Positions 687 through 22,605 of a stretch of DNA of 22,605 bases are shown piece after piece. The notes under the pieces were generated by a model, which saw only the letters and a program-made list of their open reading frames with translations, searched no databases and was not told the DNA's origin. Source of the stretch: Atractiella rhizophila (lineage: Eukaryota); assembly GCA_021432655.1 (NCBI GenBank), contig MU271234.1, positions 107,086 through 129,690 of the forward strand. The letters run 5' to 3'. Numbering within the stretch: the stretch's first letter is position 1; each line of letters begins with the position of its first letter. A program made the position numbers and the translations under genes.

Positions 687-932
687 GCACTTACTCCCTT
701 CGACTTGGGTCACTCAAGTTCTACCCGGTGTGTTTATAGAGTCCGTCCTTACTTAGTTGAAATGATGAATGTAGAGCAAATGATAGGTGGTCTGCGAGAC
801 GACCTGCGTCACTTCGCAACTGGAAAGTGCGTCAGATGAATCCATCCTAAATCCCTGCTTAACAGTATAATTGTGTTGTCTACTACTCACTGAAGCTTGT
901 CGCTCCAGACATTCCAATCACCAATGAGGTCA

Positions 933-3039
933 TTACCACTTTACGTCAAAAGAGCCGAATTTGACAGTCTTCATCCACTTCCACACATAAGTAGAAACTC
1001 CTTCAGGATGCTCGCTAATGTCGTCCCATCCCAAATAGTCGCATAGTTCCCAAGTCATGTGCAAAGAATCAGGAGTGCCCAGGACTTCAAGATCCCATGC
1101 AAGATCCTTTGAGTTTAAAGCGCTGTCGTCCATGAAAATGCCACAGTTCGACATTCCAAAATCCAGAAAAACAGGATTGGGCACTCCCGATCCATCGCTA
1201 TGGCAGATGATTTGATCTGGTCGCTGGTCAATGTCGGTGTGATTCACGCCTAGCAGCAACACGGCACCAATCATCGTCATCGCGTTGATGTACTAACAAA
1301 ATCAGCGAACGACAACTACGAATAAAAATACTCACAAATGCCCGCTGATCATCGGCTGAAAGTGATTTCAGACCTGCTTTGTCTATATGAGGACCTTCCA
1401 CAAACTCTAGCAGGTGTGCTGGTGCCACCGTTCCATCCGACAGCCGTACCTGTCCCACTTCAGTTCCGAGGCAACCCACTAAACTCACCTCGTAGAAACC
1501 ATAAGACCTTGAGATAGCTGACCCTTGAAGCAGTTGCAAAGAGGTATAAGCAGATTGCTCCCGTATCAAGCAATCCTGCGCGTCAGGCCAACGGCGAATG
1601 CGTTTCGAAGCTTCCTCCCCCGCTCCGTTCCAGGCCGGAAACGGGTACAATCGCTCCTCATAAATCTTCAGGACAAGACAGGTACCGCTGAGTTCTCTGC
1701 CAGGGATTGTAACTTCGTAAACCTGGCCCCACAGTTGTGGCCCAGACCTGAGCGAACGAAGAAGCTGTATGGATTCGCCGATTTTGAGATCAATGGCTGG
1801 CAGGGAAGATCGTTGCTTCGACATGGCGTGAAGCATGATGTTCTGTCGGAAAAGCACAAGAGGATCAGTGGTGTGCTGAGAATCAGTGTAGGGCTAGTGG
1901 ACGTGGACTCCGTAACCTTGAGAATAGACACAACCGGCAGATCCTCTCCAGGTAATCGCAAATCATCAAGCCACAACTTCCCTTCCTGCAAGCGAGCGTG
2001 ATGCCATGATATAATGGCTTGTTGGAAAGTATAGCCGGCAGCCTGAACGTCAAATAAATCAAATTCGGATGATTTGGAGATGGCCGTCAAATCAGTTTGT
2101 AGCCCAGCCGAAGGATCTCTTCGACATCCCGAAACAGCTAAGTGCGGGAAAAGTGGCAGTCCAGTGCGGCAGGAGTACTGCCCGAGACATGAATTTTTGG
2201 TAAAAAGCTCACAAAGCAAGGCCATGAGAGGCAGATAAGGCTCCTGCAAATGAAACGCATAACGTATCGTGTAGTTCAGTCGGAGTGTAACGGATGAGTG
2301 CATGTCGCAAAGAACAGCCGTCGATTCCAATGGCTCGGAAGCCATGATATCTGCGAGAACACTTAGGTATTGTCCTGAAACTGTGTTGCCCAAGTCGTCG
2401 AAATCTGTCTTGTTAAACTCTGCCCAATCCTGCTCACAAAGCACTCCATGAGGCTGCAATGACGGGATCAGCTGCCTAACTCTCCGGGCAAAATGAGCTC
2501 ACCAGAAGCACGATTGTCATCATACATCTATCTTCACGAAGTATGCGTACAACCTGCAACGCAGGAGCAGATGGTGCAGAAGCTGGTGATCTGTCAATCT
2601 GGATTTGAACTGGCCCTAGACACTGAGAAGGGTGAATGTATGGGAGAAGATGACGTAGGTCGTCGATGAATGCGGCCCCTTGGTCCGAAGCAGCACTGCC
2701 CCAAATCAAAGCGCAACAGTGATTTAGAGGCAGCAACAGTAACGAGACTAACGCCAAGCCTGTTACTGTGATTTGGTCATGAAATGGCGCGAAATCGAAG
2801 TGTCGCAATGCTTCGAGTTCACCCTTGAGGTGATCCTTGTAAGCGACGTCGAAAAATCTGCCAGTGTCTCGGGAAGGAAGGTTGAAGTCTTCGCTTTTGA
2901 CCCTATACCACAGACGTAAGAGAGATTGATCTCTTGCGCCGGAAGGGGGCAATGCCGAATTGATATGGAATGCAGGCGACCTCATCTGCTCCACCGAAGG
3001 ATCCGGTTTGAGAAATCCTTGAAGGCGTAGATTACGCAT
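933..3039 (-). pseudogene. Atypical protein-kinase-like gene, paralogue 1, frameshifted (probable pseudogene)
   Basis: Same exon layout as 12659-14790 (introns at 1293-1335, 1450-1488 and two upstream). Kinase-like motifs are LVLKIY, REQSAY, HLLEFV, HTDIDQRPDQ and LDFG. A 2-nt insertion near 1872-1875 (CTC AGC ACA CCA CTG vs CTC AGT ACC TCC GAT in paralogue 2) splits the big exon into ORFs 1668-2459 and 1228-1857. Confidence 0.75.
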
Positions 3040-3256
3040 GGTCCGCTCGACTTCCTGAGGAAATATTGTATAAGGTCAACGATGGTAGATAGCTATGTGA
3101 AGAATCTTCACCCGTATGAGGTTTTATGGATACAGAGTGGAAAGGACAACCAGGGCAGTCCTGCACCTGTTTCAAACAAGTGCAACCGAGGGAGAGAAGG
3201 AAATCGTCAAATCTTTCATGTCATGCTTCGTGAAGGCTCCGTTTTTTGTGTAAACA

Positions 3257-4699: not shown

Positions 4700-7037
4700 A
4701 TGGCAAAGATAAAGCGGCGCGCGTCTCGCCCGCGAAAAGGCGCGTCCTCCTCGACATGCTGCTCGAGTGCTCACCCATTTCCATGCAGTCGCGCTCGTCA
4801 CTGACTTCTTCTATCCCAAGATTGGCAAGTTTCTCATCCCTTGCCTTTCGAACCGCTAAGTGATGCGTTCGAGAACAGGCGGAGTCGAATCGCATGTGTA
4901 CATGCTCTCACAACGCCTCCTTGCGCGCGGATGGAGTGTCGTGGTCATCTCACACCTCTATCCTCCACCTGCTAGCGCTTCAGCTTCAAAACATTCGCAT
5001 CCAAGAGACCAGGCACCCAGAGCGGGTGTCAGGTGGTTGTCTGGCGGTTTAAGGGTGTACTACATTCCATTACAACCGTATGTTTTTGTTCTTTACGGAT
5101 TCTGAATTGTGATGAACACCAGAGGCTGATAGACAATAGGATTCCGCCGGTATCGGCGCACGCCACCCTCCCGCAATACTTCGCTTGTCTCGTCCGTTCC
5201 TTCTCTCCTTGAGTAAAACACGCAACTAAATCTGGAACGCAATCAGCCCCTTATCCGCAACATCCTCCTCCGCGAGCGGCCCCAAATCGTACACACCCAA
5301 GGCGCGCTCACCTCTCTCGGTCTCGAGGCGCTCATGCACGTCCGCACCCTCTGCGCTCTCTCCCGTCCCCCTCCTTCTCCTTCTTCCAAGCAAGCTTCCA
5401 AGCAGAGTTCGAAGGAGGAGGTCGGAGACGAAGGCATACGAATACGCACCGTCTTCACCGACCACTCTTTGTTCGCCTTCGGTGCGGTCGGAGCCATGTT
5501 TGGGAATAAAGTGCTACAAGGGGTGTTGGCGGATACGGACGCTTGTATCGCTGTTTCCCACACTGGGTGCGTCAGGCTTCCTGTCTCTTTCTCTCTCGTT
5601 GTTTCGTTGTTTCGTTGTTTCGTTGTTTCGTTGTTTCGTTGTTTCGTTGTTTCGTTGTTCACTGAGAGGAAGATGCTGACGGATTGAGGAAGGAAAGAAA
5701 ACTTGGTATTACGAGCTGGTCTCAAACCCGAAAACGTATCCGTCATCCCGAACGCTCTCGTTTCTGACCAGTTTCGACCGCATGAGCGATGCGAAGAGAT
5801 GTTCCCGCCTACGGACGGATGGAGTGCGTACACTTTTCTTTCTTCCTTTCTTCCCTTGCTTGTAAGAGTAATGACGACAGGCATGTGGGATACTGAGAGA
5901 CTCGCTGGGATGGGATACAGTCACTATCGTACTATCGTGCTCCTCTCCCGTCTCGTGTACAGGAAAGGAATCGACCTCCTCATCTCCGCCATCCCCAAAC
6001 TCTGCACTCTCGACCCCAAAATCAAGTTCCTGATCGGTTCGTCCCTCCTCCCTCATCCTCCGCCTTTCAGAAGATGTGTTCATCTGCTTACTGCTGGAGG
6101 TAGCCGGAGAGGGACCGAAGACGATCGAGCTCGAACAGATGCGCGAAAAATACCAGTCGGTGCTGGACGGGAGGGTGCAGCTCGTTGGAGCTTTACGGCA
6201 CTCGGACGTTCGAGAGGTGCCTTCCCCTCCCCTCGCAACATATCAAGTGTTTGCTGAGTGCGATGGACGGGACAGACGTTGATCAAGGGCCAAATTTACC
6301 TCCAGACCTCCCTCACGGAGGCTTTTGGGATAGGGATCCTCGAAGCCGCCTCCTGCGGCCTTTATGTCGTCGCTACCCGAGTGGGAGGCGTGCCTGAAGT
6401 CCTCCCTGACGATGGGACGATGGCGACGTGGTGCGAGGTGGACGTAGACGGTCCGTATTTCACTTCCTCCTTTTGTCGCTTCGTCGTCAGTTCACCAAAT
6501 CCTTACGCGTGTTTCGGTGTGGGGGCAGACGTGGTTCGTTGTGTGGTGCAGGCTGTGCGGCGCGTGAGGGAGGGAAAACATGTGCCATGGAAGAGCCATG
6601 AGAGGGTGAGGGGAATGTATGATTGGGACGAAGTGGCGAGGAGGACGGAGAAGGTGTACGAGGATGCGTGGGCGATGGACGATGTCGAGGTCGAGGAGAG
6701 GTTGAGGAGGTTCGTCGCTTCGCCTTCTAATTTCAATATATTTCCCTCTGGCTTGTTGGATGAGATGAATTGATAAATAGGTATCATGCATGCGGAGTGT
6801 ATTTCGGAAAAGTCCTATGCATCATCCTCATCGTTCAATGGTGGTGTTTTCTTCTCCTAGACTGGTGGAATCCGAGAGAGGAGATCGATTTAGCGGGAGA
6901 CTTGGACGTCGGGAAATTGGCTGAGGTATGTTTTTGACTTGACCATTCTGCGGAACTGAGAGAAATGGATGCAAAAGATTGTTGAAGAGGCGGCAACTGC
7001 CGCGGAAAGGAAAGATGACATCAATACGGAGCGCTAA
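4700..7037 (+). CDS. GPI3: GPI-GlcNAc transferase catalytic subunit (GPI3/SPT14/PIG-A, glycosyltransferase family 4). Exons 4700-4739, 4789-4824, 4879-5077, 5140-5191, 5247-5566, 5693-5823, 5921-6036, 6104-6216, 6276-6450, 6529-6709, 6781-6925, 6978-7037. Frame disrupted at 5923-5938
   Basis: The spliced translation gives [112 protein letters not shown] and a C-terminal hydrophobic segment [37 protein letters not shown]. These are all PIG-A hallmarks. Confidence 0.93.
5596..5659 (+). repeat. Perfect 8-bp tandem repeat (TCGTTGTT)8 inside GPI3 intron 5
   Basis: Eight exact units read directly; they lie within intron 5567-5692. Confidence 0.97.
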
Positions 7038-7315
7038 TGTTGCAAAAAATTGCACCGTCGCATTGTTTTGCATTCCAAGTAGATATCTATCATGCATTAG
7101 AAAGATGACATCAATACGGAGCGCTAATGTTGCAAAAAATTGCACCGTCGCATTGTTTTGCATTCCAAGTAGATATCTATCATGCATTGCATTTTAATAG
7201 TTACTCCATGGCATGACCGGACTCAGAATCCTAGCTACCTTCCTCCCATTGGTTAATATGTGTAGGTCGCACGAAAGATTCGGATGTCTAGTAAATGGTT
7301 ATCAATCTCAAGGGA
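6739..7315 (+). repeat. Direct repeat copy A (GPI3 last two exons plus 3' flank), partner of 12006-12485
   Basis: Colinear high similarity from TATTTCCCTCTGG through CTCAAGGGA, with scattered substitutions. Confidence 0.95.
7010..7188 (+). repeat. Exact 89-bp tandem duplication (7010-7098 and 7100-7188, 1-nt spacer) spanning the GPI3 stop codon
   Basis: GAAAGATGAC...ATCATGCATT occurs twice with a 90-nt period. Only one unit is present in the partner copy near 12269-12357. Confidence 0.97.
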
Positions 7316-12005: not shown

Positions 12006-12485
12006 TATTTCCCTCTGGATGAGATGAATTGATAAATAGGTATCATGCATGTGGGGTGTATTTCGGAAAAATCCTATGCATCATCCTCATCGTTCAATGG
12101 TGGTGTTTTCTTCTCCTAGACTGGTAGAATCCGAGAGAAGAGATCGATTTAGCGTGAGACTTGGACGTCGGGAAATTGGCAGAGGTATGTTTTTGACTTG
12201 ACCATTCTGCGGAACTGAGAGAAATGGATGCAAAAGATTGTTGAGGAGGCGGCAAGCGCCGGGGAAAGGAAAGATGACATCAATACGGAGCGCTAATGTT
12301 GCAAAAAATTGCACCGTCGCATTGTTTTGCATTCCAAGTAGATATCTATCATGCATTGCATTTCAATAGTTAGTCCACTGCATAACCGGACTCAGAATCC
12401 TAACTACGTCCCTCCCATCGGTCGATATGTGTAGATCGCACGAAAGATTCGGATGTCTAGTAAATGGTTATCAATGCTCAAGGGA
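12006..12485 (+). pseudogene. Orphan duplicate of the GPI3 3' end (last two exons, intron and 3' flank) with a premature stop
   Basis: Homologous to 6739-7315. TGG at 6866-6868 corresponds to TAG at 12125-12127, and no upstream GPI3 exons precede it. Confidence 0.9.
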
Positions 12486-12658
12486 GTGAATGTCGCCTAG
12501 CAATGTGAAGAGAGCGAATATTGAATGAGCGATTAGATGGATAGGGGAGCCACTGTCCGAAGGCACTGTCAAAGAATGCAGCATCAGGGAGTGTGATTGT
12601 GTAGTCTACTCATCATTATTAAAACGTGTATGTCCAGACATTGCAATCAAGAATGATA

Positions 12659-14790
12659 TCAATCCCACTTCACCTCAAATGGACCAAAGTTGACGGTCTT
12701 CATCCACTCCCAAACATAAGTCGAAACTCCTTCAGGATGCGCACGGATACTTCTCCATCCCAAGTAGTGGCACAATCCCCAGGTCATGTGCAACGAATCT
12801 GGAGTGCCCAGGACTTCAAGATCCCATGCGAGATCCTTTGAGTTTAAAGCGCTGTCGTCCATGAAAATGCCACAGTTCGACATTCCAAAATCCAGAAGAA
12901 CAGGATTGGGCACTCCGGATCCATTGCTATGGCAGATGATTTGATCTGGTCGCTGATCAATGTCGGTGTGATTCACACCTAGAAGCAACACGGCACCAAT
13001 CATCGTCATCGCGTTGATGTACTACCAAAATCAGCGGATAGGAAGGGGATAGATGAGGAGCTACTCACAAATGCTTGCTGATCTTCAGCTGAAAATGATT
13101 GCAGACCTGCTTTGTCGATATGAGGACCTTCCACAAACTCTAGCAAGTGTGCGGGGACGAATGTTCCATCCGACAGCCGTACCTAGTCTCTCTTTCAGTT
13201 CTGATGTGATGCAACCACAAAACTCACCTCGTAGAAACCGTAAGACCTCGGTATAGCTGACCCTTGGAGTAAGTGTAATGAACAGTAAGCAGATTGCTCC
13301 CGTGCTAAACAATCCTTCGCATCAGGCCAGCGCCGAATGCGCTTCGAACCATCCTCCTCTGGCCCGTTCCAGGCTGGAAAGGGGTACAACCGCTCTTCAT
13401 AAATCTTCAGGACAAGACGGGTACCGCTGAGTTCTCTGCCAGGGATTGTCACTTCGTAAACCTGTCCCCACAGTTGTTGCCCCGACCTGAGAGAACGGAG
13501 CAGCTGAATAGATTCACCGACTTTAAGATCAATGGCGGGCAGGGAAGATCGTTGCTTGGACATGGCATGAAGCATGATGTTCTGTCGGAAAAGTACAAGA
13601 GGATCGGAGGTACTGAGAATGAGCAGAGGTTCAGTGGACCTGAGGTTTGTTGACTCGAGAACAGACACGACCGTCAGACTTGCTCCAGGTACTTCTAAAT
13701 TATCCAGCCATAACTTCCCTTTGTGCAAGCGCTCCTCATGCCACCTTATAATGGCTCGCTGGAAAGTATAGCCGGCAGTCTGAACATCGAATAAGTCGAA
13801 TTCGGAAGATGTAGAGATGGCCGTCAAATCAAGTTGCAATCCAGCTGAAGGATCTCTTCGACATCCCGCAACAGCTATGTCCGGGAAAAGAGGCTGTCCA
13901 GTGCGGCAGGAATACTGTCCGGAACCCGATTTGGCACAAATCTCACAAAGCAAGGCCATGAGAGGCAGATAAGGCTCCTGCGAATGAAAAGAATAAGCTA
14001 TTGTGTAGTTTAGGCGGAGTGTCACAGATGATTGCATGTCGCAAAGAACTGCCGTCGACTTTAATGGCTCTGAAGCCATTATACCTGCAAGAACCTCCAG
14101 GTATTGTCCTGAAACGGTGTTGCCCAAGTTGTCGAAATCTGTCTTGTCAAACTCTTCCCAATCTTGATCACAAAGCACTCCATACGGCTACCATTAGGTG
14201 GCGAGTCAGCCGTTTGCGAACAGAAGTGAAACAATGGCACACCAGAAGCAAGATTGTCATCAAACATCTATCTTCATGAAGGATCCGCACAATCTCTAGC
14301 TCAGGAGAACCACAGGCAGGGGTTCTGGCCGTGAACGTGGATGTACACTGAATTTGAACAGGTTCTAAGCATTGAGAAGGATGAAAGTACGAGAGAAGAT
14401 GGCGCAGGTCGTCTGTGAATGAGGCCAACATGTGCGAAGCATCGCTACACCGAAAATTGAGGGGCTCTAAAACCGCGATTCAAAAGTAAGAGATAAAGCT
14501 TACATCAATCCTGTCACCAGAATCTGCTCATGAAATGGCACGAAATCAAAGCGCCGCAGAGCCTCTAGTTCTCCTTTGAGGTGATCCTTGTACGTGACCT
14601 GGAAAAGCCTTCCAGTGTCGAGAGACGGATGATTGAAATCTTCTTTTTTAATTCTATACCACACATTCAGCAGAGAATTATCTCTTTCGCCCGATTGGAT
14701 TGCTGTTGAGTTGAGACGCAGTGCAGGGGACCTCATCTGCTGCACCGAAGGGTCCGGTTTGACAAATGATCGAAGGCGTAAATTGCGCAT
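12659..14790 (-). CDS. Atypical protein-kinase-like protein, paralogue 2, 641 aa. Exons 14790-14504, 14444-14243, 14187-13228, 13182-13069, 13021-12659
   Basis: Four GT-AG introns with compatible phases give 1926 nt without internal stops. C-terminal kinase-like motifs are GQQLWGQVY, LVLKIY, REQSAY, IPRSYGFYE, HLLEFVEG, NHTDIDQRPDQII and LDFG. The N-terminal ~370 aa is unrecognised. Confidence 0.75.
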
Positions 14791-14899
14791 CTTTCACTCG
14801 CGTTCCTTTGAGGAAATTGTTAGATAGAGATGCAGGAACATTGTGAATTGAAAGGGGTCGGCTCTCATGGATGTGTGGGCAACAAGAAGGCAGTTTTCT

Positions 14900-17352: not shown

Positions 17353-20300
17353 TCAATTTTGGACGAGAGTGAACCAAACTTTGAAGTCTCCCACTTCCTG
17401 CTCCTCATGTAAAATGACTGCTTTCCCCGCATATGTTTCTTCCTTCCCCTTCTTCGCCTTCTCAGGTAACTGTTTGAGCACTTTAAGAAGCACATCTTTT
17501 CTGCTTTCCAAGACTTTGTCGAGGTCGGCTTGGTGATTTTCGCTCCAGTAATAGTAAAGGATGTCGTCCGTCGTCTTCAGGCCAGCCTTCTTCCTCATCC
17601 GCTGGATCCTGTTGATGATTTCCCGCGCAAGACCTTCCTCGACTAGATCTGGACGTAGGAGAGCATCAAGAAGAATGACGACGTCGTTATCAGTATTGGA
17701 TTCGTAGTCGGACTTGTCCTCCGCTTTCGTGACCGCGGAGACGTCGACGTATCGGGTAGTGGTCAATTCTCCCTCTACTAATTCATGCCCTTCAATCGTA
17801 ATCTTCTTGTTAGCAACGAATCCTTTGACCTCATCGCTGCTGAGCTCAGTGATGCCCTTTCGGACTTTCCCCAGGTCCTTTCGAAGCTTCTTCCCTAACG
17901 CCGGCCAGTCTGCGTCAGCTCGATATCGGACACCGCACCGTGATTCGTCTGTTGTGTACTCGATATTCTGGACGTTCAATTCTTCATAGATGTAGGGCGA
18001 TAGTGATTGTACGTCATCGAGATACTCTTGACCCGAGTGAAATACGATGATCTCTTTCAGAGGCACTTTGAGAGGAAGCGTTCGTCGTTCTCGTGCTTGA
18101 CGACCGAGATCGATAACGGTTTGCATACGAGTGACTTGTCGCTCAATAACAGGATCGAAGTACTCTTCACGGACGTGAGGGAAGCTGAGGAAGTGCACGG
18201 AGCGTGGATCATTTCCAAACTCTAGGGCCTGAATGTCCTCCTGTGATGTGGGTAGGAAAGGTCGGAGGCCTTGGTAGATGTTTTCGGTGAGGAACGGGGT
18301 GAAGGAAGACTATATTTCGGTTAGGATTGCATAATCACAGGTAGAATCGCTTACCATTGTTCTACAAAGGGTTAAAAGAGCTTCGAAGAGAGTATTCAGA
18401 GCGGCAACAGTATCATCCAGTCCATTCGCGCCTTTCAGTCGTAAGCGGTTGAACCGGATATACCAGTTGGTGAGCTCGTCAATTAGACCTAATAACCGAG
18501 GTAGTATGGTGTATAATCGGTAAGCTATCACGATTTTTAGCCAGTAATAATATTTGCCATACTCAACTTTACCTTCCATCTCCGTCTTGACCAACCGGAT
18601 AAGGCTTTGGCATCGGGCCAAAATCCAGCGATCCATGACATTCTCTGACTTCTTTGCGTGGACATTGAACGTGAATTCCACTTGCGAGGTTTTCTTGAGA
18701 AGCTCGACTTGTCCAAGGAAAAAGCGGAACGAGTTAAGCCACGGCAACAGAGCTCGGCTGATGACTTCCTTCACCCCTGAGTCCTTGAAGCGAAGGTTCT
18801 CTCCTCGAACGACAGGTGAATTAATGAGGTATAATCTAGCAGGCTGCTCAGCAAGTCCACTGGCCATACAAAGCACGCACCGTAAAGCATCAGCGCCATA
18901 TCGTGCAAGGATCTCATTCGGATCAGGGTAATTCTTTAGACTCTTGGACATTTTACGACCGTCCCTGCAAAAAGTTAAACGGCATAACCATACAATCCAA
19001 AAAAACAGCGTACTCTGCAAGGACGATGCCAGTCACAATCAAATTCTTCCATGGGGCGGTATCGAAGAGAAGGGTTGCAAGGACTAGAAGGGTGTAGAAC
19101 CAACCGCTACAACGCCATTAAATCGACGCGCAAGAAGTTTGAGTTCAAGGCATACCGCGTCTGGTCAAGACCTTCTGCAATGAAGTCAGCGGGAAACCGC
19201 TCATTAAAGCCTTCCTTGTTCTCGAAGGGGTAGTGGATCTGAGCGTAAGGCATGCTAGAATGTCTTGAGAGTCGTGAATAGGGAAGAAACAGCGAAGACG
19301 TACCTGCCAGACTCAAACCAGCAATCAAATACCTCCTCTACACGCCGAAGTTGGCCTTTACCCTTTTTCGAAGGGACACTAATCTTGTCAACTGTTTCTC
19401 GATGAAGGTCAGTGAGTATGCCGCAACCAGCTAGCTCGTTTAATTCCTCTAGCGATCCAACACAGACAATCTAATATTTCATCAGCAATCTGTAGATTTC
19501 CGGCGCGACGAACCTCTTCCAAGTCTTCACTAGCCCAGAGCGGCAATGGCGTTCCCCAATACCTATTCCTGCTGATGTTCCAATCCCTAGCGTTCTTGAG
19601 CCAATTCGCAAATCTCGAATCGGAGACTGATTGTGGAACCCATCTTGTCTGGGCATTGTTGTTGACAAGCTGTTCAGTCGAATTGGCGACACGGATGAAC
19701 CAAGCGGGCACAGAGCGGTAGAGAAGAGGAGTGCCAGAACGCCAACAGAAGGGGTAAGAGTGAGTGAGTGTGCCTTGATGCACAAGACAATTCATAGCTT
19801 TAATGGCGCGCGTGATGCCTTTATCAGCATCCTGCACCAAGCGTGAGAACACTTCTTTATTGTCATAGGAAAGTGGCATAGTGGCATATCATACCTTCAC
19901 GTACTGTCCCTCGAACTCCGGAATGTAAGACGTGTACTTGCCCGTCTCATTGATGGGACAAGGTGGCATTTCATCTTCTTTCAGCACTCCTTCTCGCACA
20001 CAAACTCGATGATCGTCTTCTCCAAAAGCAGGAGCTTGATGAACGATTCCGGTACCAGCATCAGATGTGACGTAATCGTCGTTGACGACCTTCCATGCTT
20101 TCGTTTTGTACTATTTCCCAGTCAACATTTAATCAAGTTATCAGTGTACAAAGTCGACAAACTTGTTCGTAGAAGTGCTGGAACATGGGTTTATACCTCC
20201 ACCCATTTAGGTCCTTCCCTTTCCATTCCTGTAATTTCTTGAATTTCGCCTTCTTGGGATCCTTGTAGATGGCATTCAGAAGTTTATCACAAATAATGAA

Positions 20301-22292
20301 ATTCTGTTTCTTCTCCTCGTCGAAGATCTTGATGTAAGTAAACTCTGGATGCACGCACAGCGCCATGTTGCTGAAGAGCGTCCACGGAGTCGTCGTCCAC
20401 GCGAGAAGGGATGTCTCTGGATCATCGATGAGGGGGAATGAAACCACCACTGTTCCACAGATTTGATGGTCAGAATACAGTTGATTTGTGGGAACGGACA
20501 GCGAACCAGAAGGATCTACAACGTCCCTGTAATCCAAACCCGCCTCAAAATTGGACAGGGGTGTAGTCAACCCAGTTGAATAAGGCATAACTTTCACGCC
20601 TTGATACACCAGATCCTTGTCCCACAGTTGCTTAAATACCCACCAAACGGTCTCCATGAATGAAGGATTAAGCGTCTTGTAATCATTATCGAAGTCAATC
20701 CATCGTCCCATTCGCTCTACTGTGCGTCTCCATTCGGCGGAATAACGCATCACGATTGCTCGACACTCCGCATTGTACTTGTCGATACCCATCGCCATCA
20801 CGTCCGCCTTCCCCGTGATGTTGAGCTTTTTGTCGATCTCGTGCTCGACGGGGAGGCCATGCGTGTCCCATCCAAATCGCCGTGAGACGTGATAGCCGTT
20901 GGTGTGCGCGAAACGAGTAACGACATCCTGAAGTGATCATATATCAGTTCAAACTGCCACAACTGAAGAAATCGGACAAAGTCGACAAACTTGTTCGTAG
21001 AAGTGCTGGAACATGGGTTTATACCTCCACCCATTTAGGTCCTTCCCTTTCCATTCCTGTAATTTCTTGAATTTCGCCTTCTTGGGATCCTTGTAGATGG
21101 CATTCAGAAGTTTATCACAAATAATGAATTTCTGTTTCTTCTCCTCGTCGAAGATCTTGATGTAAGTAAACTCTGGATGCACGCATAGCGCCATGTTGCT
21201 GAAGAGCGTCCACGGAGTCGTCGTCCACGCGAGAAGGGATGTCTCTGGATCATCGATGAGGGGGAATGAAACCACCACTGTTCCACAGATTTGATGGTCA
21301 GAATACAGTTGATTTGTGGGAACGGGCAGCGAACCAGAAGGATCTACAACGTCCCTGTAATCCAAACCCGCCTCAAAATTGGACAGGGGTGTAGTCAACC
21401 CAGTTGAATAAGGCATAACTTTCACGCCTTGATACACCAGATCCTTGTCCCACAGTTGCTTAAATACCCACCAAACGGTCTCCATGAATGAAGGATTAAG
21501 CGTCTTGTAATCATTATCGAAGTCAATCCATCGTCCCATTCGCTCTACTGTGCGTCTCCATTCAGCGGAATAACGCATCACGATCGCTCGACACTCCGCA
21601 TTGTACTTGTCGATACCCATCGCCATCACGTCCGCCTTCCCCGTGATGTTGAGCTTTTTGTCGATCTCGTGCTCGACGGGGAGGCCATGCGTGTCCCATC
21701 CAAATCGCCGTGAGACGTGATAGCCGTTGGTGTGCGCGAAACGAGTAACGACATCCTGAAGTGATCATATATCAGTTCAAACTGCCACAACTGAAGAAAT
21801 CGGCCGGGAATCTAGAAGACAGAATGCAGGGTGATTTATCTAACTTTCGCAGAAAGTGAGGTGGGAATGAGCCGTTCTGCTGGACAGTTCATAGAGCCAG
21901 CAGCAAGCCATCTTTGTAGCACTTGATTCGAAGTGTTACCATCCGCTTCAATACAAAGACTAATAAACAAGGCGATATCAAGAGTGTTGTAGCGATAATT
22001 CAATCTCACTCAAGCTCTCCCTGGACTTGGACCAAGCAGCTACGATTGAGCTCACCTTGACTGTTCCTAGTAGCAAATGCCCATAATGTGGCAGACCCGT
22101 TGCAAATGGCGGGCCATCATAGAAAGTAAACTCTTTCCGTCCCTCCTTCAAACTCTGTCTAACAGATTCTTGAAAAGCATCGATCTCCTTCCAGTAAGCC
22201 ATCACCTTCAGCTCCTCATCTGGGAAGGAGAACGGAGCAGCCGTATCGTGCGCAGGAAATGCGGACTTTGATAGATCTTGTGAAGTGGACAT
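17353..22292 (-). CDS. ILS1: Cytosolic isoleucyl-tRNA synthetase. Exons 22292-22056, 21755-21335, 21277-20991, duplicates 20927-20507 and 20449-20163, then 20110-19895, 19831-19514, 19470-19304, 19254-19156, 19106-19014, 18964-18881, 18835-18573, 18524-18355, 18309-17353
   Basis: [16 protein letters not shown] (HIGH motif), WTTTPWT and [15 protein letters not shown] (CP1 editing domain), [41 protein letters not shown] and the C-terminal [12 protein letters not shown]. All introns are GT-AG with consistent phases. Confidence 0.98.
20148..21803. repeat. 828-bp head-to-tail tandem duplication inside ILS1 (20148-20975 and 20976-21803)
   Basis: Constant 828-nt offset. Five differences seen by eye, at 20301/21129, 20358/21186, 20498/21326, 20736/21564 and 20757/21585. 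Confidence 0.97.
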
Positions 22293-22389
22293 TATCTCAA
22301 CAGTTTCTGAAGAAATCTATGGACGTTTTATAGGTAGATCTGCTCTTAGTCGGCTCAGCGCGACTTGGAGAATTTTGGCACCCTTATCA

Positions 22390-22409
22390 TGACTCAAAGT
22401 GTTGACTCA
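22390..22409. promoter_or_regulatory. Two TGACTCA motifs (Gcn4/CpcA-type bZIP response elements) about 100-117 bp upstream of the ILS1 ATG
   Basis: TGACTCA at 22390-22396 and 22403-22409. Aminoacyl-tRNA synthetase genes, including yeast ILS1, are known targets of general amino-acid control. Confidence 0.65.
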
Positions 22410-22605
22410 ACAGGACAAATCTTGCCAACCAGTAATATCGAAACCGTGGAAAGCTGTTGGACCCGAACCTGAAGGGTACGATAGGAGATAGGATAGACAG
22501 AACAGAGAGGGAAAGGCTTAAAAGAGAACTCCGAATGAGACTCTCGATCCCACAAATCCCGGTTTACGCGGCAAAATCGCCATTTGTTCACATTCCGCGA
22601 TCTCT

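Follow-up and report, generated by a model that had tools for sequence, protein, structure and literature searches.

A tandem 828-bp duplication in the isoleucyl-tRNA synthetase gene of Atractiella rhizophila: a probable assembly error or single-isolate variant

The DNA analysed here, referred to below as the window, is a stretch of 22,605 nt from Atractiella rhizophila (contig MU271234.1, positions 107,086–129,690, assembly GCA_021432655.1), and all coordinates are positions within it. The minus strand at 17353..22292 carries a gene for a cytoplasmic isoleucyl-tRNA synthetase (IleRS), whose start codon at 22292 and stop at 17353–17355 are those of the assembly. The deposited protein at this locus, P0001, which its source names A. 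rhizophila IleRS, is 1354 residues long, and tblastn places residues 1–1354 at 22292–17356. Precomputed Pfam assignments on P0001 are PF00133, PF08264, PF09334 and PF19302, and comparison with the solved eukaryotic IleRS chain 8wnd_A gives an E value of 0. The sequence contains both GLPHYGH and KMSKS, and the PF00133 catalytic domain together with these HIGH-type and KMSKS signatures identifies the product as a class I cytoplasmic IleRS. WTTTPWT, the threonine-rich peptide of the CP1 editing domain, is present in both copies of the repeat described below and aligns with the same peptide of 8wnd_A. In its full-length match, its motifs and its domain order, the protein thus resembles eukaryotic cytoplasmic IleRS of the ILS1 type (8wnd, 9wqs, 7d5c). 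It differs from them in that the residues equivalent to 75–249 of 8wnd_A are present twice, and in its length of 1354 residues compared with 1025–1148 in the full-length relatives listed.

Within the gene, 20148–20975 and 20976–21803 form a head-to-tail duplication of 828 bp. Comparison at a period of 828 reveals five mismatches, at 20301, 20358, 20498, 20736 and 20757, and no gaps, and self-BLAST of the two units returns 99.396% identity over 828 bases with five mismatches and 0 gaps, a similarity far beyond chance. The copies abut directly, there being 0 N in the window, and no bases are shared at the junction. The upstream copy, U (20976..21803, minus strand), takes in 48 nt at the end of intron 1, the whole of exon 2, intron 2 and exon 3, and 15 nt at the start of intron 3; the downstream copy, D (20148..20975, minus strand), is the same unit with the five mismatches. 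Elsewhere in the window, at 7010–7189, a further 90 nt are duplicated in tandem with a clean junction, and a dispersed sister copy of that region at 12016–12485 holds the unit once.

The gene model, all of it on the minus strand, begins with exon 1 (22292–22056), which encodes 79 residues and ends in phase 0. It is followed by intron 1 (21756..22055; 300 nt, phase 0), inside which the upstream breakpoint lies at 21803/21804, and by exon 2 (21755–21335; 421 nt), intron 2 (21334–21278; 57 nt) and exon 3 (21277–20991; 287 nt) of copy U. A hybrid intron of 63 nt with GT..AG ends (20928..20990) leads into exon 2 (20927–20507), intron 2 (20506–20450) and exon 3 (20449–20163) of copy D, after which come intron 3 (20111..20162; 52 nt, phase 0), with the downstream breakpoint at 20147/20148 inside it, and exon 4, from 20110. 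The hybrid intron is made of 15 nt from the donor end of intron 3 and 48 nt from the acceptor end of intron 1, and the junction falls between 20976 and 20975. Exons 2 and 3 together amount to 421 + 287 = 708 nt, or 236 codons, and the result is an in-frame repeat that begins immediately beyond HYGH and extends into the editing domain. Four of the five differences between the copies are exonic, three of them synonymous and one a replacement, and the fifth is in intron 2; both copies keep an open frame. The two 236-residue units accordingly differ at a single residue (100% and 99.576%), which is N in D (20301) and K in U (21129). The coordinates, counts and anatomical features given in a preliminary description of this DNA all hold on period-828 comparison, self-BLAST and tblastn; its statement that skipping either copy restores the normal frame is also borne out by the exon geometry.

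The deposited model reads through a GT..AG intron of 45 nt (18880–18836), and the corresponding residues are absent from 99 of 100 relatives. The 1354-residue model was therefore not checked against transcripts, and it provides no evidence that both copies are present in mRNA.

Contigs from four public sequencing runs, the DNA run X1 and the RNA runs X3, X4 and X5, were compared with the locus. The best-matching public run shares only 0.72 of the sequence words, and the source reads are thus not among the public runs found. X1 has four two-letter sites within the unit at which both window copies agree, and eight sites without the letter of the window; moreover, the window's letters at 19787, 19789 and 19927 are matched by none of the four runs (the first two positions are not covered in X5). 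From these differences it follows that all four come from isolates other than the assembled one, and that absence of the junction from them says nothing about the source DNA.

The runs are nevertheless informative about the letters by which the copies differ. All five differences between U and D (20301 A>T, 20358 C>T, 20498 A>G, 20736 G>A and 20757 T>C) are variant sites at which other runs hold exactly the letter of the other copy. At 20301 the U letter is found in X1 and X3 and the D letter in X4 and X5. X4 and X5 have exon 2 with U letters and exon 3 with D letters, X3 has exon 3 with U letters and exon 2 with both, and X1 shows a single letter at each of 20301 and 20498. In no run are both letters present at every site, so that we are dealing with alleles of a single-copy gene and not with fixed differences between paralogues. 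X1 contains 10 two-letter sites in about 1776 covered bases (0.56%), revealing two haplotypes in this DNA run, and the divergence of U from D is 5/828, or 0.60%; the agreement of these values indicates that isolates of the species are heterozygous at this level. U and D are therefore two alleles' worth of sequence rather than copies that diverged in place, which favours the caveat in the preliminary description that the five differences resemble allelic divergence.

The pattern in X4 and X5 was considered as exon 2 of the upstream copy spliced to exon 3 of the downstream copy, and this was rejected: at 20388 and 20859 the two runs have a letter found in neither copy, and they depart from the window at several downstream sites as well, among them 19377, 19379 and 19927, and they therefore represent another haplotype. 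Relative to the window, X1 has variants at the final base of D (20148) and at 21805, which is 2 nt away from the other breakpoint. These variants were considered as the mark of a contig end, an idea we dropped since both window copies share the same letter at 20148/20976 and the site would then not be heterozygous in the source of a misassembly.

No contig of X1, a single DNA run from another isolate, crosses the junction at 20975/20976, and contig depth is 0 in all four runs in the last bin, 20998–21035. Both X1 contigs extending to 20975, where the unit starts, continue into intron-1-like sequence, and another contig passes from the unit end into intron 3. The RNA contigs of X3, X4 and X5 display the joins of exon 1 to 2, 2 to 3 and 3 to 4, except that X4 has no listed 3-to-4 joint. 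Removal of intron 3 is seen as a 20110/20163 joint in X3 and X5, and that of intron 1 as a loose end of the exon 1 to exon 2 join at 20929 in all three runs; the introns spliced in RNA contigs at the locus are 43–63 nt long. A join of exon 3 back to exon 2, which would mark the spliced hybrid intron, was not found in the RNA contigs of these three runs from other isolates, in which the five joints listed are all forward intron skips; RNA contigs cannot tell U from D over identical stretches.

Contig depths in X1 are about 290–345 in the flank and about 350–430 in the unit, and the depths sum to 298.7 at one two-branch site inside the unit and to 498.8 at one in the flank. These values are inconsistent with one another, and contig depth is not copy number, so their use as such was abandoned. 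A 30-nt stretch across the DNA junction had 0 matches in metagenome contigs, as did a 26-nt stretch from the end of exon 3 used as a positive control; the collection thus lacks the gene of this species and the scan for the junction is uninformative.

Among relatives, the near-identical repeat is confined to the protein from this assembly. It is absent from all 119 other IleRS proteins listed (1 of 120 has it), and the cluster of this assembly's IleRS has one member. Orthologues from Pucciniomycotina show 85% identity across exon 2. The matches listed include no further A. rhizophila IleRS, the next best being 85% identical, and the annotation of the assembly thus lacks a separate second allele. 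Among proteins of <744 residues, a 100-residue query around the exon 3–exon 2 join gave 866 candidates, 826 of them with E <= 0.001. None of the 120 listed spans the join; the highest identity among them, 88%, comes with 51% coverage, and the broadest coverage, 83%, with 38–42% identity. They include no fragment from this species that could serve as a positive control.

The assembly thus contains the duplication, whose two copies carry standing alleles, and none of the other haplotypes and relatives sampled has it. We consider it probably either an error of assembly or a variant private to one isolate, and we lean towards the former, in which two alleles were placed in tandem by the assembler. 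On this reading the gene of the species would be an ordinary single-copy cytoplasmic IleRS with exons in the order 1-2-3-4 and so on. The sequenced isolate would be heterozygous, and probably dikaryotic or diploid, and its two alleles would have been laid one behind the other over 828 bp as a false heterotype duplication, the breakpoints having fallen in introns 1 and 3 by chance. The protein of 1354 residues, the hybrid intron and the 236-residue repeat would then be products of assembly and gene prediction and not of the fungus, and the junction would be absent from the isolate's own DNA. An artefact is favoured by the match of all five differences to standing alleles and of the divergence of U and D to the heterozygosity of X1, and by the lack, in other isolates, of an X1 contig over the junction and of an RNA join from exon 3 to exon 2. 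The occurrence of the repeat in one of 120 IleRS proteins listed, and of one A. rhizophila IleRS among them, may be counted on the same side. Against it, the junction is clean with no gap (0 N) between the copies, and the location of both breakpoints in phase-0 introns, so as to give an intron of normal size, is a coincidence under an artefact. Graph-based assemblers normally write no junction without support from reads, which also counts against it. Had the assembly been built from long reads, a false tandem copy of 828 bp would be unusual; a literature search found no published description of the assembly method or the ploidy of A. rhizophila, and PMC13347111 acknowledges a colleague for 'unpublished genome data for Atractiella'. 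Moreover, one ordinary homologous crossover after a real duplication would also leave U and D with different standing alleles; unless such a duplication were brand new, the alleles thus do not distinguish it from an artefact.

A true duplication confined to the assembled isolate or to a rare haplotype is a serious competitor, to which we give somewhat less than an even chance. It could have arisen by non-homologous joining or template switching from intron 3 to intron 1, and would have acquired its standing alleles either because the event took place between homologues or by later homologous crossover with a single-copy allele. Short fungal introns are recognised one by one, so the default mRNA would have the 63-nt hybrid intron removed and both copies included, giving an IleRS of 1354 residues (about 1339 without the 45-nt intron) with a 236-residue internal repeat; such a protein would be tolerated, or else a normal allele carried by the second nucleus would shelter it. 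The clean junction without N and the breakpoints in phase-0 introns argue for this origin, as do the derivation of both halves of the hybrid intron from introns spliced in RNA contigs and the open frame of both copies, with three synonymous changes and one replacement. As the 90-nt case shows, this assembly does contain small, blunt tandem duplications, and with the source reads not among the runs compared, the junction is not contradicted in the isolate itself. On the other hand, the absence of the junction from X1 and of the exon 3 to exon 2 join from X3–X5 makes such an allele rare at best, 119 other listed IleRS proteins lack it, and the divergence of the copies equals the allelic divergence within an isolate (X1). 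In addition, two half-domains, corresponding to residues 75–249 of 8wnd_A matched twice, would have to loop out of an essential enzyme, and such an IleRS would be hard to tolerate in a haploid phase, through which the allele must have passed if its letters were acquired by meiotic exchange. That the junction is real and the hybrid intron is spliced to yield an IleRS with the repeat, or that a normal enzyme is made by choice between identical splice sites, we regard as unlikely; the repeat would there consist of half of the Rossmann fold and the start of the editing domain, in a root-endophytic basidiomycete.

The headline of the preliminary description, a nascent alternative-exon cassette, goes further in proposing that real DNA gives IleRS of normal length from either copy, as K or N isoforms, by splicing exon 1 to exon 2 of copy D, or exon 3 of copy U to exon 4, the choice being regulated or useful. 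What speaks for it is geometry only: 708 nt of exon per copy, flanking phase-0 introns and the 63-nt GT..AG hybrid intron, with duplicated splice sites that are identical, so that either pairing is chemically possible and skipping keeps the frame. However, the RNA contigs of X3, X4 and X5, in which the copies are indistinguishable over identical stretches, have only ordinary joins, and K and N are simply two alleles present in other runs. Skipping would need introns of about 1128 or 880 nt, compared with the 43–63 nt spliced in RNA and the 300 nt of intron 1, and exon skipping is uncommon in fungi. Nor is the arrangement conserved in related strains or species, being found in 0 of 119 other listed proteins and its junction in no X1 contig. 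The proposal thus draws no support from three of three RNA runs, from the relatives or from a gene model unchecked against transcripts; since all the runs are from other isolates, it is not refuted either, and we judge it highly improbable. At least as improbable is a young intrachromosomal duplication whose copies have since acquired new mutations in situ. Their identity of 99.4% would suit such an origin, which is contradicted by the variants in the runs: all five differences match these variants in place and letter, in runs without both copies, and with about 1% of sites variable, five new mutations would not all land there with the same letters.

The preferred reading, of alleles placed in tandem, has a published counterpart. 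In the account of Ko et al. (2022, Genome Biol 23:205, PMC9516828), the predominant type of duplication error when heterozygous genomes are assembled is the heterotype false duplication, false exon duplications within a single scaffold being among the forms described. The marks of false duplication given there include 'gaps between duplicated pairs', haploid-level (half) read depth over each copy, and discordant or missing reads across the junction. As in that account, two allelic versions are adjacent in one haploid assembly, with haplotype-specific letters and an inflated gene model, in a species about 0.6% heterozygous in the IleRS gene; unlike the cases described there, the IleRS copies have no gap between them and a clean junction. 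Intragenic tandem exon duplication is reported to give rise to mutually exclusive or alternative exons, an animal example being U2AF1 exons 3/Ab (PMC5224494), and the IleRS exon copies resemble these in being tandem and frame-compatible with duplicated splice sites. In the known cases the copies are ancient and divergent, are conserved between species and have been demonstrated in transcripts, whereas the IleRS copies are 99.4% identical, comprise two exons and an intron, and occur in one assembly of a short-intron fungus, without transcript support.

If the duplication is an artefact, the deposited IleRS of 1354 residues is wrong by 236 residues, and by a further 15 from the unspliced 45-nt intron, and is unfit for alignments, domain statistics or claims of novelty in gene structure; similar errors, with alleles placed in tandem, may sit elsewhere in the assembly. 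If the junction is real, a multi-exon duplication in an aminoacyl-tRNA synthetase would have been caught in the act. It would then be of moderate interest, yet a single-isolate variant, offering a rare natural test of internal repetition tolerated by the catalytic core of an essential synthetase and showing how a short-intron fungus chooses among duplicated splice sites.

Comparison of the window with itself at a period of 828 revealed a head-to-tail duplication of 828 bp in the minus-strand isoleucyl-tRNA synthetase (IleRS) gene, with a downstream copy, D, at 20148–20975 and an upstream copy, U, at 20976–21803. The copies differ at 20301, 20358, 20498, 20736 and 20757 and are 99.396% identical over 828 bases with no gaps in a self-BLAST; immediately beyond them, mismatches become dense. 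The window contains no N, and the copies share no bases at their junction, 20975/20976. The deposited 1354-residue IleRS, P0001, maps by tblastn over residues 1–1354 to 22292–17356 on the minus strand. Exon 1 (22292–22056; 79 residues, ending in phase 0) is followed by intron 1 (22055–21756, 300 nt) and then, in copy U, by exon 2 (21755–21335, 421 nt), intron 2 (21334–21278, 57 nt) and exon 3 (21277–20991, 287 nt). A hybrid GT..AG intron of 63 nt (20990–20928) leads to the same elements in copy D, exon 2 (20927–20507, 421 nt), intron 2 (20506–20450, 57 nt) and exon 3 (20449–20163, 287 nt), after which come intron 3 (20162–20111, 52 nt) and exon 4, from 20110. Each copy contributes 708 nt of exon, or 236 residues, and the two units differ at a single residue, Lys in U and Asn in D; three of the four exonic differences are therefore synonymous, the fifth difference lying in intron 2. 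The preliminary description had given this anatomy correctly in all its numbers. Both copies of intron 2 are in frame and stop-free, so that the open reading frames 20133–20801 and 20949–21629 run through it uninterrupted; if retained, it would lengthen the protein by 19 residues and not cut it short.

The exon 2 translation matches P0001, named isoleucyl-tRNA synthetase of Atractiella rhizophila at source, with 100% identity, and the next-best matches are cytoplasmic IleRS from other Pucciniomycotina at 85%. P0001 contains HYGH, KMSKS and WTTTPWT and aligns with a solved eukaryotic IleRS (8wnd_A, E = 0) in two stretches, residues 17–264 with 4–249 and residues 326–1316 with 75–1040. P0001 therefore holds two versions of the segment that begins just past the HIGH-type motif and reaches into the editing domain. 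The 236-residue unit is matched by all 120 proteins among the matches listed, with more than one local match in three: P0001 has two full-length, near-identical matches, the second match in P0002 is only 49% identical, and that in P0019 is a split continuation of the first. The repeat is thus found in one of the 120 listed proteins, this assembly's own. P0001 is the only member of its cluster, the next longest protein among the matches listed has 1148 residues, and no second near-identical IleRS occurs among those 120. Among the proteins listed by a search around the exon 3–exon 2 join, none spans it and none is an A. rhizophila fragment, so that this negative has no positive control. P0002, a sea urchin entry labelled 'LOW QUALITY PROTEIN', matches the unit at residues 66–298 (57%) and 554–739 (49%) and may likewise be a faulty IleRS model, derived from a highly heterozygous genome.

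A search of public sequencing runs with window positions 18000–22605 listed 20 runs, the best sharing 0.72 of sampled words. Contigs from four of these, X1 (DNA) and X3, X4 and X5 (RNA), were compared with 19200–21035, which takes in copy D with the flank downstream of it, crosses the junction and extends 60 nt into copy U; it was picked to avoid a long internal repeat. At all five sites that distinguish the copies, the U letter is the alternative letter in at least one run, and no run has both letters at every site. X1 has both at 20358, 20736 and 20757 and U only at 20301 and 20498; X3 has U only at 20301 and 20358 and both at 20736 and 20757; X4 has D at 20301 and 20358 and U at 20736 and 20757; X5, which does not cover 20358, has D at 20301 and U at 20736 and 20757. 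The intronic site 20498 is covered by none of the RNA runs. From this pattern we conclude that the U/D differences are recombining alleles of a single-copy gene and not fixed differences between paralogues. In X1, 10 of about 1776 covered bases (0.56%) show two letters, so the heterozygosity of isolates in the IleRS gene matches the divergence between U and D (0.60%). The caution expressed earlier, that the differences resemble allelic divergence, is thus the better reading; divergence in place after a recent duplication is scarcely credible, being ruled out by the standing-allele letters and the matching level of heterozygosity. Across 19200–21035, X1 carries non-window letters at 18 sites, at 13 of which the window letter is plus-strand A, a lopsided spectrum.

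X1 behaves as DNA, its contigs covering introns with no intron-skipping joints. Both contigs extending to 20975, where the unit begins, go on into sequence that agrees with the window's intron 1 at 28 of 30 positions, and one contig passes from the unit end across intron 3 and enters exon 4. The RNA-like runs show five joints, all forward GT..AG skips of 43–63 nt on the minus strand, among them intron 2 (X3, X4 and X5) and intron 3 (X3 and X5), and each run has a loose end at 20929 reading into exon 1. The ordinary gene and transcript of the species are therefore single-copy, with exons in the order 1-2-3-4. No X1 contig crosses the junction (depth 0 in bin 20998–21035), and no backward exon 3 to exon 2 joint is listed in the X3, X4 and X5 contigs, but none of these runs comes from the assembled isolate. 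Only three of the seven two-letter sites of X1 in the unit are U/D sites, and at the others, 20360, 20388, 20859 and 20892, both window copies carry the same letter. X1 lacks the window letter at 8 sites; X1, X3 and X4 have non-window letters at 19787, 19789 and 19927, as does X5 at 19927, the only one of the three that it covers. Absence of the junction from these runs consequently tells us that the species does not normally carry the duplication, and says nothing about the source DNA. A scan of metagenome contigs gave 0 matches to the junction and 0 to an exon 3-end control, and so had no positive control. No genome paper, and hence no printed account of the assembly method, was found in the literature; PMC13347111 refers to Atractiella genome data as unpublished.

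We judge the chance that the duplication is an assembly artefact to be slightly better than even. An artefact would account for copy differences that are allelic in kind and level, in a species heterozygous in the IleRS gene, and for an annotation with no separate second allele. According to PMC9516828, false duplications of the heterotype class, among them false exon duplications, are frequent in assemblies of heterozygous genomes. The same paper gives a gap between copies as a hallmark, whereas here the junction is clean and gapless, which counts against an artefact, as does the position of both breakpoints in phase-0 introns, leaving a working donor and acceptor. These features speak for a real duplication private to the isolate, for which we allow an appreciable, though less than even, chance. 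Different standing alleles would likewise end up in U and D after a single homologous crossover involving one duplicated and one normal allele, and the allelic differences therefore do not separate the two explanations. It counts against a real duplication that, during a haploid phase, the allele must have encoded an essential enzyme carrying two additional half-domains, unless one copy is dropped in splicing; that would require introns of about 0.9–1.1 kb, whereas the RNA-spliced introns of this gene are 43–63 nt.

The suggestion of a nascent alternative-exon cassette found no support, and we regard a working cassette as very improbable. Both halves of the hybrid intron derive from introns spliced in the RNA contigs, its 63 nt lie inside the local size range, and the 48 nt from intron 1 hold a branch-like CTGAT motif about 18 nt before the AG. 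If the duplication is real, intron-by-intron recognition would by default give an mRNA with both copies in frame; a normal-length mRNA would arise only if, of two identical acceptors, exon 1 joined the distal one, or if, of two identical donors, the proximal one joined exon 4.

Elsewhere in the window, a second clean tandem duplication (7010–7189) has a 90-nt unit twice, with 89 of 89 bases identical and one differing junction base; it sits inside an element of about 560 bp whose dispersed sister copy (12016–12485, 94–97% identical) has the unit once. A 2.2-kb dispersed direct repeat (904–3064 and 12633–14817; 80.7% identity, many indels), with long open reading frames in both copies that have no Pfam match, may represent an older pair of paralogues or a repeat of unclassified type. 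Two neighbouring plus-strand reading frames at 5703–6773 match glycosyltransferase group 1 (PF00534, PF13692), the second with E = 7e-9 and the first under the curated cut-off, and are probably one intron-split gene.

The deposited P0001 model also reads across an in-frame 45-nt GT..AG intron (18880–18836, minus strand), adding 15 residues that are absent from 99 of 100 relatives covering the site and from 8wnd_A; this intron was probably left unspliced in the model. For this reason we discount P0001 as evidence that both copies are present in the mRNA. The chief use of the finding is as a caution over this IleRS gene model.
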